Part shown: positions 1,254 to 7,802 of the stretch, piece by piece | How positions within the stretch are numbered: position 1 is the first letter of the stretch | Layout: the number at the start of each line of letters is the position of its first letter | Position numbers and translations under genes: made by a program | The notes under the pieces: generated by a model | Told to the model about the DNA's origin: nothing | The model's database searches: none | What the model saw: only the letters and a program-made list of their open reading frames with translations | Source: Escherichia coli | GTDB taxonomy: Bacteria > Pseudomonadota > Gammaproteobacteria > Enterobacterales > Enterobacteriaceae | DNA: 64,000 nucleotides | NCBI RefSeq assembly: GCF_050920415.1 | Contig: NZ_CP169309.1 | Strand: one strand, 5' to 3'

Positions 1254-2281
1254 AAAACGACACGCCCGATAGCGGAAAACGGAATGAGACACAGGCTCTG
1301 CGTGATGCCTGCTACGGCAATTTTTTTGCTGTCACCGATCTGCTGTACCGCAGTCGTGGCGATGCCATTTCACTGAGAACGGAACCGGAGCAGGAAACGG
1401 TTCATTTTCGTGCCAGTCCTGACATCGCGTTTCCCCTGCGGGATATTGAATCGCTGGAAAAAAATACCGCCGATCAGTACGTAATGACCACCCGATTTAT
1501 GGGGTTATCCGGCAGTTCATCACCATTGCCGGGTTACTATCTGGATGAGATGGCCTGGGTGCAGGCACAGGAAGGCGGCAGCACAACGGCGGATTTCCTG
1601 AACCTCTTCACCCACAGGTATACGCAATTTTTGTACCACATCTGGCGAAAATACCGCTGGTATATCAGTTTTCGTAATGGTGGAACGGATAAGATCTCAC
1701 AGCGGATCTATGCGCTTATCGGGCTGGGCAACCCGCGTGTACGGGAACGGCTGGATATCTGCCACAGCAGGCTGCTGGCTTACGCCGGAATATTATCCGG
1801 CCCCGGACGTTCACCGGCAATGATCTGCGATCTGATCGCACACTGTTTTGATCTGCATGATGTCAGACTGGAAAACTGGCAGTTTCGTCGGGTGGCTATT
1901 CCACCTGATCAGCAAACCCGGCTGGGAAGGTGTGAGCCGGATGCCGAAGGGAAGATGCAGGGTAAATCGGTGCTGGGCGTTAATTTTGTTCTCGGCTCGC
2001 GCGTACCGGATTACAGTGGGAAATTTATGTTGTGTATCAGTAACCTGTCACTGCCGCGATATATGGCCTTTTTGCCCGACGGTGAGGAATACCTGGCGCT
2101 GACCACCTTCGTGGCTTTCCTGTTGCGCGATCAGTTTGCCTGGGAGCTGCGGTTAAGTCTTGTGCCAGAGCAAATTGGTGGAATGCGGCTGGGGGATAAG
2201 AGAAGCTCTCAACTGGGGAGAACCAGTTTTATTGGTAAGCCGCCACGCGAACCCTTTGTGACCATACGGGTCAGGGGATAA
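1217..2281 (+). CDS. tssG: Type VI secretion baseplate subunit TssG-like
   Basis: 354-aa ORF overlapping the upstream ORF by 37 nt; contains an FMGLSGSSSPLPGYY motif resembling the conserved TssG FxGLxGxxGPLP signature. Confidence 0.55.
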   Translation: MEGKNRSVPPDVENDTPDSGKRNETQALRDACYGNFFAVTDLLYRSRGDAISLRTEPEQETVHFRASPDIAFPLRDIESLEKNTADQYVMTTRFMGLSGSSSPLPGYYLDEMAWVQAQEGGSTTADFLNLFTHRYTQFLYHIWRKYRWYISFRNGGTDKISQRIYALIGLGNPRVRERLDICHSRLLAYAGILSGPGRSPAMICDLIAHCFDLHDVRLENWQFRRVAIPPDQQTRLGRCEPDAEGKMQGKSVLGVNFVLGSRVPDYSGKFMLCISNLSLPRYMAFLPDGEEYLALTTFVAFLLRDQFAWELRLSLVPEQIGGMRLGDKRSSQLGRTSFIGKPPREPFVTIRVRG

Positions 2282-2616
2282 AGCCTGTACTGGCAATTGT
2301 TCCGGCCTGCGCTTTGCGATCCGTCCTTCCAGAAAATCACTTGCCACCTTTTATGGGTCATTGTATCGTTGCGCCGCGTCTGCAAAATCAGGCGTCGGGA
2401 TTGGTCTCCCGGTTATAACTCGTTGACGGCATATGACATTTCTGTGTCATTTCTGTGCCGTGCGTTCGGCTGCACTTCTATGGTGGGGCCGGGTGGGGGC
2501 GTTGAAAGACGCGCCGGTTCCCAACGAGACCGGTAAGACCAACTCCGTCCGGTTCCACCACCCGTAAGATTGGTCTCTTCAGTGGTGGAAAATATATTCT
2601 CGTTGGAGGCCACATT

Positions 2617-3078
2617 ATGGCTGTTATTTCTGTTCATAAAGACGATTTACTTACCATCCCCTTCAGTGCCGCTACTGATTTCACCGATCTGGCTGCTCAC
2701 TGCGATCGCTTCGCCCAGACCCTGATCGAATGCCACAATCCTGCGCTAAAAATGGCGCTCTGTGGCAGGCTTAATACCTGCCTTGCACTGTTGCGGCCCA
2801 CGCTGAACGAGCCGATCCCGCCGCATCTGATTGACGGTTTTATTACGAATGATTTTCCCGATGTTTCACCCGGTTTTGAACCTGATGCAGAATCACTCTG
2901 CGATTACTGCCTGGCGCTGACACAGATACTGAATGGTCACTCACTGTTACCTGAAACCGAAACCACGCTGACCGGGCTGCTGTGCGAGCTGGTCTGGTAT
3001 TTTGCTGACAGTCTGAAAGCCCCGCACTGGATACGTACCGCTGACGGCGTACAGGTTATCGACGGGAGGCCAGCATGA
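2617..3078 (+). CDS. Hypothetical protein (153 aa), first gene of a two-gene operon with the Ner-like gene
   Basis: ORF with plausible RBS (GGAGG upstream of ATG); stop overlaps start of next ORF (ATGA); no recognisable motif. Confidence 0.5.
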   Translation: MAVISVHKDDLLTIPFSAATDFTDLAAHCDRFAQTLIECHNPALKMALCGRLNTCLALLRPTLNEPIPPHLIDGFITNDFPDVSPGFEPDAESLCDYCLALTQILNGHSLLPETETTLTGLLCELVWYFADSLKAPHWIRTADGVQVIDGRPA

Positions 3079-3329
3079 TGCAGCCGGACTGGCATCCCGC
3101 TGATATTATCGCGGGACTGAGAAAACGGGGGACATCGCTGGCTAAGGTGTCCCGCAGCGCGGGACTGGCGTCCGCCACGCTGGCAAACGCGTTGACCCGT
3201 TCGTGGCCGCGCGGCGAAAAACTCATTGCGGATGCGCTGGAAACATCACCGGAAATTATCTGGCCCTCCAGATATTTCGATAATCAGGGCAACCGCATTG
3301 TAAGACTTATGCGAGAGCGGCGCTCCTGA
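3075..3329 (+). CDS. Ner/Nlp (SfsB)-family HTH DNA-binding protein
   Basis: 84-aa product with DWHPADIIAGLRKRGTSLA...WPSRY, closely resembling recalled Mu Ner / E. coli Nlp(SfsB) proteins. Confidence 0.8.
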   Translation: MMQPDWHPADIIAGLRKRGTSLAKVSRSAGLASATLANALTRSWPRGEKLIADALETSPEIIWPSRYFDNQGNRIVRLMRERRS

Positions 3330-3366
3330 TGGCAGAAGCGTCAGATACAAGGTTACGGTAAAATAT

Positions 3367-3408
3367 CTCCCGGCTCTCTGCCTGCTTCTGCTGGCAGAGA
3401 GCCGGGAG
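3367..3408. terminator. Perfect 16-bp inverted repeat (ctcccggctctctgcc / ggcagagagccgggag) just after the Ner-like gene; terminator-like hairpin without a clear T-run
   Basis: Read directly from sequence. Confidence 0.5.
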
Positions 3409-4219
3409 AAGACAAGCGAAGCGCGGCAGTTTTTCAGTCACGAAGTAAGCAAACAATCTTTTAAACGCAAAAAACGTTTTTTCTTTCTGCGCCAGAAATA
3501 ACGGTGTAATCTCCCTCCTGCACTATGCCTTCGGGCACCCTTTGGCTTCATGGTCTGCAAGAAGCCCCTGATTTATCAGGACGACCAGCCCTTGCTACCG
3601 GTACGACCTCCGCAATACCGGAACGCGAAAGCGTTTGAGGCGAAGTAATTACACACCGGACAGCCCCATCGTCATCGTTTTACCGCAACGGCCTTCACTG
3701 GCTGCAAGGTTTCTCTTTGCCGGAATTTCTCCGGCCTGCTTATCCCCTGCTGATGACCAGCGCCTTTTACATGACGGGCTGCGGCCTGCATTGCCGTCAG
3801 GCTTTGCTGCCGCGTGACCGTTAATCTACCAGACTGTTAATTTTCGAATACTGCACCAGAAACGCAATGTTTACCCCTTGCACCAGACGAGGCGTCACTT
3901 TGATCGCGTCAGCGAAAAAGCAAAGTGACGCCGCACAACTCACCGCCGCAAGCCGCGCCAGTTCTGGCCTGCGCCCTGTTTCCGCCGTCTGACATGCCCT
4001 TTGGGGCCGTTGTCAGCTCAGAGTAAAGGAGAAAAAGATCGATACCGAGGGGGGCACGACGCCCCGGAGACACCCCTGCTTCGTCAGGCAGTCTGTACTG
4101 CGTACAGCCTGAAACTCCCTAAACCTCAACAAACTGCCACTCCGGCGTGAAGGTATCGTTCTGGCGCAGCCAAAAAGCACACGCCGGAGACTGTTTGTTT
4201 TTGTTGTCAGGGGAGAGTC

Positions 4220-5104
4220 ATGAGCAAATTAAGCAGTGAAATGAAGGCGCTGGCGAAGAAAGCGGGCGGCAGCTTCAAAACGGTGAATGATCGTATTCAT
4301 GCCACGAAGCGGTTCAGCCAGCATTTACGCGAACTGAATATCCAGATCCAGCGGGTGGAGCAGATCAAAGTTCGCCATATCGAATGCTACATTCAGGAGC
4401 GGCTGGAGCAGGATATTGGTTTACGCACGCTGCAAAACGAAATGGCGGCGCTGCGCTCCGTACTGAGACTGGCGGGACGCCGACAGGTGGTGGAGCATCC
4501 GCGCCTGACCAATAAGGCGCTGGGGCTGTCAGGCGCTTCGCGCAACGGCACGCGCCGCGCCATTACGCCGGAACATTATGAAAAAGTGATGGAGAGCGCC
4601 CGTGCACAGGATGCGGGGCTGGCGGCAGCGGTGGAGATTGCGCGGCTGATGGGATTACGCTCGCAGGAGGCGGTACAGAGTTCACAGTCGCTGAAAACGT
4701 GGCTGAAAGCCATTTCCCGCGGCGAAACCCGGCTGAAAGTGGTGTTTGGCACCAAAGGCGGGCGTCCACGTTACACAACGATCCTGGACGCTGGTGCAGT
4801 CAGAAAGGCGGTGGAAAACGCGTTACCGATCGCCAGACAGCGCAATGGCAGGCTGATCGACAGGCCTGACCTCAAAACAGCGCTGGAGAGCTGGCACAAA
4901 CAGGCCATTAAGGCGGGACTGAAGGGGGAATTTTCCCCGCACTCACTGCGTTATGCATGGGCACAGGACGCGATCCGTTATTATCTGGCGCAGGGATTCA
5001 GCGAAAAAGAATCCCTGGCGCTGACGGCAACGGATCTGGGCCACGGCGACGGTCGCGGCCGCTGGGTGAAACAGGTGTACGGCTACCGCTGGAAGGAGGA
5101 ATAA
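4220..5104 (+). CDS. Tyrosine-recombinase-like (phage integrase family) protein, atypical, 294 aa
   Basis: HSLRYAWAQD (HxxR-like box), GLRSQE motif and C-terminal Tyr-containing region; strong RBS (GGGGAGAG) before ATG. Confidence 0.55.
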   Translation: MSKLSSEMKALAKKAGGSFKTVNDRIHATKRFSQHLRELNIQIQRVEQIKVRHIECYIQERLEQDIGLRTLQNEMAALRSVLRLAGRRQVVEHPRLTNKALGLSGASRNGTRRAITPEHYEKVMESARAQDAGLAAAVEIARLMGLRSQEAVQSSQSLKTWLKAISRGETRLKVVFGTKGGRPRYTTILDAGAVRKAVENALPIARQRNGRLIDRPDLKTALESWHKQAIKAGLKGEFSPHSLRYAWAQDAIRYYLAQGFSEKESLALTATDLGHGDGRGRWVKQVYGYRWKEE

Positions 5105-6249: not shown

Positions 6250-7461
6250 CTATATTGCCCTTACAGTCACAGATGCCTCACTGATCTTCTGCCCCCACCA
6301 ATTCATCAGTTCCACACGCTGAACCAGGTAAACTGCGCGGTTGTAGGCAACACGTGTTGGATTTTCATCAATATGTGACAAAACTGCTTCCACCGCATCC
6401 GGCATAAATCCGGCTTCATGCAGCGCCGTACTGCCCAGCGCGCGGAAACCATGTGAAACCAACTCGCCGCCGTAACCCATCCGCCATAATGCCTTGTTGA
6501 CCGTCTCACTGTGCATTGGCTGGCTGCGTTTAACCCTGCCGGGAAAGACATACAGCGAATGCTCACTTAATGGCTTAAGCTGCGCCAATACCGACATTGC
6601 CTGTGGTGACAGTGGCACCTGGTGCTCACGCTTCATCTTCATGCGTTCAGCCGGGATAGTCCAGAGCCGTTTATCCATATCAATCTCACACCACATCGTT
6701 CCTGCGGCCTCAGCAGGGCGTACCAGGGTCAGGAGTTGCCATTGCAGCAATAACCGCGTCATGGGGCTTAAACAGGTTGTGTGGACCCGCTGCATGAGTT
6801 CCGGCAGACGCTCCGGGCGAATGGTCGGCATATGCTGCTTTTTCGGCTTCACGAATGCTTCATCAATGGTTGACGCCGGGTTTGCATCCAGCAGGCCTGT
6901 ATTAATGGCGAATTTCATGACCTCATTAATTCGCTGCGTCAGCCGGTGCAACGTCTCCAGCGTGCCACGCGCCCGTACAGGCTCCAGGGCGGAAATAAGC
7001 GTGTGCGCTTTCAGTTCTGTCACTGGCATCTGCCCAATGGCCGGGAACACATCGCGCTCCAGCGATCTCCAGATATCGTCTGCATAATCTTCGGAGATTC
7101 TGGTTTTCTTCACCGCGAACCATCTCGTCGCCACATTAATAAACAGGCTCTCCACCGCCAGCCGCTCCCGTTCGGCTTCCTCCTGCTCCAGTTTCTTTGG
7201 GTCAATACCTTTCACAAGCAGGGAAAGCTGTTCGGCGTGTAATGCGCGTGCGCTGGCAAGCGACATGGCAGGATAATGCCCGAGAGTGATGGTGGTTCGC
7301 GCAGTCGAATTTGGCCGTTTGTAACGAAAACGCCAGATCTTTTTACCGCTGGTTCTGACAAACAGGGTCAGCCCCTGCCCGTCAAACAGTTCGTAATCTT
7401 TATCAGAGGGTTTTGCTTTCTGGACTTCGCAAGCTGATAACGGACGGGTAAGAACAGCCAT
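6250..7461 (-). CDS. P4-family site-specific tyrosine integrase
   Basis: 403-aa product with N-terminal DKDYELFDGQGLTLFVRTSGKKIWRFRYK (P4-int signature) and C-terminal catalytic region (HGFRALGST...AYNRA.Y); located immediately downstream of a tRNA operon. Confidence 0.85.
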   Translation of the reverse strand: MAVLTRPLSACEVQKAKPSDKDYELFDGQGLTLFVRTSGKKIWRFRYKRPNSTARTTITLGHYPAMSLASARALHAEQLSLLVKGIDPKKLEQEEAERERLAVESLFINVATRWFAVKKTRISEDYADDIWRSLERDVFPAIGQMPVTELKAHTLISALEPVRARGTLETLHRLTQRINEVMKFAINTGLLDANPASTIDEAFVKPKKQHMPTIRPERLPELMQRVHTTCLSPMTRLLLQWQLLTLVRPAEAAGTMWCEIDMDKRLWTIPAERMKMKREHQVPLSPQAMSVLAQLKPLSEHSLYVFPGRVKRSQPMHSETVNKALWRMGYGGELVSHGFRALGSTALHEAGFMPDAVEAVLSHIDENPTRVAYNRAVYLVQRVELMNWWGQKISEASVTVRAI

Positions 7462-7726: not shown

Positions 7727-7802
7727 TGGTGGGTCGTGCAGGATTCGAACCTGCGACCAATTGATTAAAAGTCAACTGCTCTACCAACTGAGCTAACGAC
7801 CC
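7727..7802 (-). tRNA. lysV: tRNA-Lys (UUU)
   Basis: 76-nt exact match to recalled E. coli tRNA-Lys sequence (reverse complement), ends CCA. Confidence 0.95.

Follow-up and report, generated by a model that had tools for sequence, protein, structure and literature searches.

We found that positions 2282 to 3408 of a 64,000-nucleotide (nt) stretch of Escherichia coli DNA (contig NZ_CP169309.1; the whole stretch is called the window below) contain two overlapping genes preceded by a structured RNA leader, and that together these probably form an operon of the phage P1 immI kind that resides on an integrative genomic island and has an antisense RNA as its gate; we put the probability of this reading at about three in four. 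The first gene, orf153 (2617..3078, + strand), encodes a 153-amino-acid (aa) protein of an orphan family, and the second (3075..3329, + strand) encodes an 84-aa winged helix-turn-helix (HTH) DNA-binding protein of the Ner family. A preliminary description of this DNA had reported both open reading frames (ORFs), with their overlap in ATGA, in this region, and its proposal of a regulatory module on a mobile island is supported by our data; it had also seen possible protein operators in repeats upstream of orf153 and a possible toxin-antitoxin pair in the two proteins, and for these the analysis led elsewhere. With the present reading the locus shifts from an HTH regulator with operator repeats to a P1-type RNA-gated switch reused by chromosomal islands.

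C4-type RNA and its targets in the orf153 leader

The only promoter-like match within 2200-4300 was a sigma-70-type promoter at 2341..2369 (+ strand; -35 TTGCCA at 2341-2346, a 17-nt spacer and -10 TATCGT at 2364-2369), and the transcription start predicted from it, at about 2376, is the first base of a match to the isrK family. In 74 sequences (73 related loci and the window), the -35 CTTGCC and the -10 GGTATCTT were conserved, with a spacer of variable sequence. The isrK-like 5' leader RNA (2376..2454, + strand; Rfam RF01394) scored 53.2 bits against a threshold of 50, and the same element scored 55-76 bits in related loci, lying upstream of C4 in 10 of the 12 loci that were scanned for Rfam motifs. 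It is followed by a gene for a C4-type antisense RNA (2476..2565, + strand; Rfam RF01695, 68.1 bits against a threshold of 45), which matched the model over its full length (model positions 1-87) and which, in both the minimum free energy and the centroid folds, forms a closing stem around two hairpins (-46.3 kcal/mol, z = -3.4).

Two segments of this RNA have targets in the leader that separates it from orf153 (target leader a2/b2, 2570..2608, + strand). The segment b', the loop of the second hairpin (CCAACGAGA, 2521-2529), is exactly complementary over 9 nt to b2 (TCTCGTTGG, 2598-2606), and b2 overlaps the Shine-Dalgarno sequence GGAGG (2604-2608) of orf153, the ATG of which is at 2617. The segment a', at the junction (AGACCAA, 2536-2542), is complementary over 7 nt to a2 (TTGGTCT, 2570-2576) and also to a1 (TTGGTCT, 2401-2407). 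The latter belongs to an upstream copy of the C4 targets, the candidate c4-a1b1 element (2363..2415, + strand; Rfam RF03163), with b1 (CTCGTTG, 2419-2425) located just past the model match; segments of C4 are exactly complementary to both a1 and b1, and in the predicted fold of the precursor both are paired with C4 in cis. In addition, the closing stem of C4 has a 3' arm (TTCCACCAC, 2553-2561) that can pair with an element between a2 and b2, GTGGTGGAA at 2582-2590, and this third pair co-varies among loci (for example CCGCCACC/GGTGGCGG and CTGCCAC/GTGGCAG), with a mean complementarity of 7.3 nt in cognate and 5.8 nt in non-cognate combinations of 69 loci.

These elements account for the short repeats that had been put forward as operator sites. 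The sequence catttctgtg indeed occurs twice, 11 nt apart (2437-2446 and 2448-2457), and ccggttcc is present at 2514-2521 and 2549-2556, but the third repeat is imperfect, reading ggtaaga at 2532-2538 (ACCGGTAAGA) and cgtaaga at 2562-2568 (ACCCGTAAGA). Since a repeat finder gave 19 comparable families in 1.2 kb, such repeats are weak evidence when taken alone. All of them fall within the C4 and isrK covariance-model matches that exceed the curated Rfam thresholds: ccggttcc represents the arms of a C4 stem, g/cgtaaga falls at the junction of C4 and at its 3' edge, and catttctgtg is part of the isrK-like leader, in which some of it forms the 3' hairpin. The informative repeats had been overlooked, namely GATTGGTCTC at 2399-2408 and 2568-2577 (a1 and a2), CTCGTTG at 2419-2425 and 2599-2605 (b1 and b2), and the complements of both pairs within C4.

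We fetched 80 orf153 loci from different species, and in 69 of these the gene immediately before the orf153 homologue is a homologous C4; the invariant partner of orf153 is the C4 RNA. Co-variation was scored in 70 sequences (the 69 C4-bearing loci and the window), a complement being counted if it was perfect and at least 7 nt long. The leader of the same locus contained a complement of b' in 93% of cases versus 18% of non-cognate pairs, and a complement of a' in 99% versus 20%. About 17 b cores and at least seven a cores were distinguished, each with matching targets and in about 40 combinations, and the upstream a1/b1 copies co-varied in the same way. In most loci, the end of b2 lies 9-11 nt before the ATG. 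The co-variation of loops and targets, the position of b2 and the conserved promoter together speak for a genuine interaction between the RNAs, by which the ribosome-binding site is occluded.

The cassette is also found on its own. Solo forms, which lack the Ner gene, were present in unrelated chromosomal contexts and in up to five copies per genome. For example, in one Enterobacteriaceae genome (locus L085, 9112-10438), which has five copies with a different a/b specificity in each, a solo cassette is inserted between chemoreceptor genes and cheW, in the order of a 176-aa ORF without a family, isrK, C4 and the orf153 homologue. Among 23 same-genome pairs with a detectable C4 in both members, none shared both a and b specificity; as a trend this was rejected as not significant, with about 0.5 shared pairs expected from a background of 2.4%.

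The order of a1/b1, C4 (a'/b') and a2/b2 is the layout reported for the immI region of phage P1 (Citron & Schuster 1990; Biere et al. 1992), in which c4 reportedly blocks the translation of icd, after which Rho stops the transcription of ant. The DNA of the C4 core matched a few phages, and in the P1-like phage vB_EcoM-673R5 the gene after c4 is icd, the end of which has a 4-nt overlap with the gene that comes next. The island loci aligned with the immI region of a P1-like phage from C4 through a2, b2 and the Shine-Dalgarno sequence into the first codons: the N-terminus of Icd is MATIPTPTHP and that of many orf153 homologues MATIPTQTHP (consensus MATIPTxTHP), and the DNA encoding these residues is likewise common to both. 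The orf153 of the window itself begins MAVISVHKDD. Beyond these residues, the bodies of orf153 and Icd are unrelated (hhalign probability 0.6%). A leader and about 10 codons in common, followed by unrelated bodies, suggest that the regulatory cassette is portable and has been joined to different coding bodies; in the comparison of the phage locus (L096, 2590-2811) with the orf153 homologues, the recombination joint of the cassette seems to be located within the ORF. P1 and P7 immI have their parts in the same order (a1/b1, C4, a2/b2 with b2 on the ribosome-binding site, a first ORF and a second ORF with a 4-nt overlap), but their second gene encodes the Ant antirepressor and ours a Ner-type HTH protein of 84 aa. 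Their first ORF is Icd, with which ours has no more than the leader and about 10 codons in common, and they belong to phages, whereas our locus is on an island integrated at a tRNA and has an isrK-like leader before C4.

The two proteins and the terminal hairpin

The orf153 protein is acidic (isoelectric point (pI) 4.6, net charge -12) and contains seven cysteines. It had no match in Pfam, NCBIfam, PHROG or PADLOC, and none in a sequence-profile search of the PDB. An AlphaFold2 (AF2) model showed a four-helix bundle with a C-terminal beta-hairpin (predicted local distance difference test (pLDDT) 88.6, predicted template modelling score (pTM) 0.82), and the protein would most likely act through binding another protein. 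Clustering of its relatives gave 228 groups at 90% identity and 171 at 50%, those with an organism name all being from Enterobacterales, and of 5,426 complete genomes of E. coli, 294 contain a member of the family. Changes at the third codon position numbered 4443, versus 1329 at the first and 962 at the second, a pattern of purifying selection. We considered whether orf153 might be like orf151 of P4 or be phage-borne in some other way, and rejected this, the only match in 50,697 phage records being to a 1.5-kb fragment; the few "plasmid" matches look like chromosomal or prophage pieces.

Apparent fusions of orf153 (291-494 aa) were also rejected, being gene calls that run through one or two C4 genes and thereby give matches to PF10554 ("Ash"). 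The orf153 family is often mis-annotated as "ash family protein" in this way. In the relatives P0011, P0018, P0238, P0249 and P0253, the label rests on N-terminal extensions or internal stretches translated from the C4 gene, and Pfam PF10554 seems to capture a translated RNA gene.

The second protein (pI 11.1) matched Pfam HTH_35 (PF13693) with an E-value of 1.2e-32 and 112 bits against a cut-off of 25, in agreement with its earlier assignment to the Ner family, and its sequence matches in the PDB included Mu Ner (1NEQ, 6.9e-25) and EnrR (7F9H, 5.8e-21); its PHROG match was phrog_769. It is not an SfsB/Nlp equivalog, because its score against NCBIfam NF007670 (114.4 bits) is under the equivalog cut-off of 150. 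A Ner gene follows orf153 in 37 of the 80 loci, and the ATGA overlap is retained in about 34 of these 37, which bears out the translational coupling that had been proposed for the two genes. The Ner gene is absent from the other 43 loci, where the next genes are unrelated (including GGDEF, HAD, Dam methylase, RhuM and DeoR genes), and Ner/EnrR homologues were also found without orf153.

The Ner-like protein resembles the Ner-family regulators Mu Ner, EnrR and Acr1 in its HTH_35 fold, with strong sequence similarity to Mu Ner and EnrR, and like them it is small, very basic and encoded by a mobile element. EnrR of Edwardsiella is an island-encoded, nucleoid-associated counter-silencer that displaces H-NS and activates the genes for secretion systems of types III and VI (T3SS and T6SS) (PMC9023278), and Acr1, a Ner-like protein encoded on IncA/C plasmids, represses the transfer activator of these plasmids (PMC4207636). 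The T3SS and T6SS of E. piscicida are controlled by EnrR, and the present island likewise carries type VI secretion genes; in E. piscicida, EnrR lies on a separate island (GI2). The possibility that enrR loci share the upstream cassette was rejected, since EnrR-type genes were first in their operon, with neither C4 nor orf153 upstream, indicating that the same DNA-binding family is deployed differently here.

The two-gene unit is closed by a long GC-rich hairpin (3366..3409, + strand; arms 3366-3385 and 3390-3409, 20 nt, 95% complementary), the core of which is the perfect 16-bp stem recognised in the preliminary description. It folds at -47 kcal/mol (z = -4.6), and none of 200 shuffled sequences folded as well. 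Hairpins of 16-20 bp occur at the same place in most Ner-containing loci, the structure being conserved and the sequence different. A canonical Rho-independent terminator was rejected for this hairpin, which has no U-tract within 2 nt and was not called in a terminator scan, a run of five T residues being located about 20 nt further on; it may represent a terminator, a processing site or an RNA-stabilising structure.

The proposed switch and its alternatives

We infer the following course of regulation. A single transcript from the promoter (start at about 2376) would contain the isrK-like leader with a1/b1, C4, a2/b2, orf153 and the Ner-like gene, and C4 would presumably be excised from it, as in P1, P7 and P4. 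The b' and a' segments of C4 would then pair with b2 and a2, and ribosomes would be shut out from orf153 because b2 overlaps its Shine-Dalgarno sequence; the Ner-like gene would be shut off too, through the ATGA coupling and probably through Rho-dependent polarity. With the translation of both genes blocked by C4, the pair would be off at steady state. Expression would be expected if C4 is missing or too scarce for its targets, for instance in a naive cell that the island has just entered. The different a/b sequence types would represent separate immunity specificities, each repressed by a matching C4 only. The Ner-like protein would bind DNA, either as a repressor of the Mu-Ner/Acr1 type or as a counter-silencer of the EnrR type that acts against H-NS on island DNA.

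A processed RNA with targets in its own transcript is also known from the satellite phage P4, in which the processed CI RNA, a member of the Rfam family of C4, pairs with flanking sites of the transcript that gives rise to it and acts by premature transcription termination at seqA and seqC. The present island resembles P4 in having a P4-type integrase at a tRNA and a C4/CI-type RNA with flanking targets in its own transcript, but P4 CI terminates transcription, whereas occlusion of the ribosome-binding site is proposed here; none of the island genes corresponded to the replication or capsid-redirection genes of P4. A further likeness is to isrK-orf45-anrP of the Salmonella prophage Gifsy-1, which has in common with our locus the match to the isrK model, a small element after the leader, an AUGA-coupled gene and, as proposed here, regulation through RNA-RNA pairing near the ribosome-binding site (PMC4825925). 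In Gifsy-1, IsrK activates translation in trans and the downstream antirepressor induces AntQ (PMC4825925), whereas in our locus orf153 and the Ner-like gene occupy the downstream positions and it is C4 that clearly pairs with the ribosome-binding site.

Several observations weigh against the proposed switch. The c4-a1b1 model match in the window scored 43.1 bits, just under the threshold of 46.7 (two related loci score above it). Some loci have lost C4 altogether, and the copy in an avian pathogenic E. coli (APEC) O78 genome looks decayed, its a2 no longer matching a' and its HTH gene being frameshifted. Structure searches with orf153 returned only generic helical bundles and no specific relative, and AF2 modelling of orf153 linked to the Ner-like protein showed no sign of a fixed complex (pTM 0.47) in what was a weak test (19 sequences, a monomer model and no predicted aligned error). 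The third conserved complementarity, between the C4 3' arm and the leader, may hint at alternative structures, perhaps in the unprocessed transcript, and the homologous isrK leader of Gifsy-1 activates translation (PMC4825925), by analogy with which the sign of regulation could be more complex here; for both of these reasons, regulation may exceed simple repression.

The loci without C4 and the APEC O78 copy have features of their own. In L044 and L079 (and also in L042, L056, L073 and L075), the isrK/a1b1 element stands directly before the orf153 homologue, an arrangement that fits deletion of C4 by recombination between the direct repeats a1b1 and a2b2, and such copies could be controllable in trans only. 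The APEC O78 copy (L002, 9960-10250 and 10702-10955) is 82% identical and located at a tRNA-Asn; its C4 a' (ATGCCAA) matches a1 and not a2 (TTAGCCT), its Ner-like gene is annotated as frameshifted, and the copy looks recombinant or decaying.

In P1, Icd stands for "interference with cell division", and one alternative is that C4 and orf153 form a type I-like cassette of RNA antitoxin and protein toxin, or a growth-arrest cassette like P1 c4/Icd, in which the Ner gene is an optional passenger. The unit of promoter, C4 and orf153 is the invariant part of the loci, solo copies reside in unrelated chromosomal contexts, orf153 occupies the position of icd with its first 10 or so codons in common, and the homologous leader of Gifsy-1 controls a toxic pathway (PMC4825925). 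The absence of shared specificities among co-resident copies would also agree, but it does not differ significantly from chance. Moreover, orf153 is unrelated to the body of Icd and resembles no known toxin fold, and C4 and its target on one transcript fit poorly with classical post-segregational killing, so that we regard this alternative as unlikely.

It has also to be considered that control is exerted mainly by protein, the Ner-like protein binding within 2330-2600 and autoregulating the operon, with C4 as a relic. Mu Ner and Acr1 repress their own promoters (PMC4207636), the top EnrR peak in chromatin immunoprecipitation lies upstream of its own gene (PMC9023278), and autoregulation of this kind would be compatible with an RNA gate. 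However, the leader is equally conserved in loci without a Ner gene, the targets co-vary with the RNA loops in a manner that a protein operator leaves unexplained, and no conserved palindromic, AT-rich operator was found; we consider mainly protein-based control of this sort quite improbable.

A type II toxin-antitoxin system, in which orf153 would be the toxin and the DNA-binding Ner-like protein an antitoxin autoregulating through the upstream repeats, would suit two small proteins, one acidic and one basic, with translational coupling and a location on a mobile island, but it is very unlikely: orf153 follows C4 with or without a Ner gene, the Ner/EnrR homologues occur without orf153, neither protein matched a toxin, antitoxin or defence model in Pfam, NCBIfam, PHROG or PADLOC (the Ner-like protein had matches to the HTH_35/Ner family only, and none in PADLOC), the repeats are accounted for by RNA structure, and the linked AF2 model contained no confident complex. 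Just as little credence can be given to a non-functional prophage immunity remnant at the island edge, which would be in keeping with the phage origin of the elements and with decayed copies such as that of APEC O78 and the C4-less loci, but not with purifying selection on orf153, the conserved promoter, compensatory changes in many lineages, the conserved coupling and terminal hairpin, and the recurrence of the module with EFASI and Integrase_1 in many genera.

Beyond the RNA-gated operon itself, a wider view can be put forward tentatively, with the odds against it as a whole. In this view, promoter, a1b1/isrK, C4, a2b2 and orf153 would together make up a portable cassette for RNA immunity, of which more than 15 orthogonal specificities exist, and its Ner-containing form would be the master switch of an island family. 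Upon entry of the island into a cell without its C4, a burst of orf153 and Ner would establish counter-silencing, excision or anti-host functions; orf153 would represent a novel type of effector and sRNA-Xcc1, described below, a second, C4-like immunity RNA with the same use. The island family, integrating at tRNAs, would be an undescribed one, with a backbone of C4, orf153, Ner, STAXI/EFASI, Integrase_1 and P4-type integrase.

The RNA elements all belong to described Rfam families and their logic is that of P1 immI. What is new is the identity of the regulated genes, an orphan protein family and a regulator of the Ner/EnrR type, the placement in a recurrent island backbone and the breadth of co-varying specificities; searches of the literature by protein accession and for Ner-like proteins with antisense RNA on islands retrieved no description of the module. 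The co-variation is evidence from nature that C4 interacts with its targets, and it extends over many types of specificity; the a/b types offer a ready set of orthogonal RNA/target pairs. The orphan orf153 family gains a regulatory context, and C4, isrK, EFASI, STAXI and sRNA-Xcc1 are tied to one recurrent island backbone, with T6SS, RHS or anti-phage defence cargo depending on the host. Should the Ner-like protein work in the manner of EnrR, the escape of horizontally acquired T6SS genes from silencing by H-NS could be timed by the switch.

Island context and related RNAs

The window is part of an E. coli chromosome and is 100% identical to strain MFDS1022581. The island lies between the xap genes and the lysV/valU tRNA cluster, beside gltX, and the orf153-Ner region is flanked by tssG (1217-2281) and by the gene for a second tyrosine recombinase, of the Phage_int_SAM_2/Integrase_1 type (4220..5104, + strand; PF12834 2.5e-40, PF12835 3.4e-59). 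Directly upstream of the latter is an EFASI RNA motif (4034..4162, + strand; Rfam RF02957, 99.2 bits against a threshold of 51.2). A P4-type integrase gene (6250..7461, - strand; Pfam Arm-DNA-bind_3, Phage_int_M and Phage_integrase) follows, beside a tRNA-Lys (7730-7802, - strand) that marks the attachment end of the island.

The same order is usual elsewhere: the Ner-containing form of the cassette, with which the Integrase_1 gene co-occurs, is usually followed by EFASI and the Integrase_1-type recombinase, a P4-type integrase and a tRNA. EFASI preceded Integrase_1 in all 12 related loci scanned, and in two loci (L005 and L041) STAXI (RF01728) was located between the Ner gene and EFASI; in the window, STAXI was undetectable by the Rfam scan. 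These positions in the window and the 12 loci agree with the reported location of STAXI near c4 RNAs and integrases (PMC2864571) and with that of EFASI downstream of STAXI and upstream of integrase genes, as given in the part of the Rfam description quoted in PMC12370729.

The cargo was compared in the window with its flanks (L001), L086-L089 and L002. The window island carries an orphan, partial T6SS set (vgrG, DUF4123, PAAR, tssF and tssG), that of APEC O78 at tRNA-Asn carries RHS and Ig-like genes, and that of Klebsiella pneumoniae carries AbiE, TacA/TacT and DUF4747 defence genes. The upstream neighbours of the cassette, compared in two loci, were unrelated.

In two loci, C4 is replaced directly before the orf153 homologue by another RNA of similar shape, sRNA-Xcc1 (RF02221), which was located at 5841-5925 in L017, 5859-5943 in L023 and 5572-5656 in L012. 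The second loop of this RNA has a complement right beside the Shine-Dalgarno sequence (TCGTTAG/CTAACGA in L023) and another in an upstream copy of this site, and its junction GTTTTGAG matches CTCAAAAC upstream and CTCAAA downstream, which suggests that sRNA-Xcc1 is a C4-like cis-encoded antisense regulator. In L012, Xcc1, isrK and C4 are arranged in tandem, an order also given for Xylella (PMC12189769 Table 4).

Two further features were observed downstream of the operon. The segment 5200-6400, between the Integrase_1 gene and the P4-type integrase gene, is AT-rich (GC 35-42%, versus about 53-57% in most flanking windows) and has no long ORF, making it a plausible binding region for H-NS or a Ner-type protein. 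In the spacer between the Ner gene and EFASI (3410-3490), the sequence AAGCGAAGCGCGGCAGTTT, just 3' of the hairpin, recurs in other loci, as does a second element resembling TTTAAACGCAAAAAACGTTTTTT, which elsewhere reads TTTGAA(A/C)CGCAAAAACAGTTTTT.

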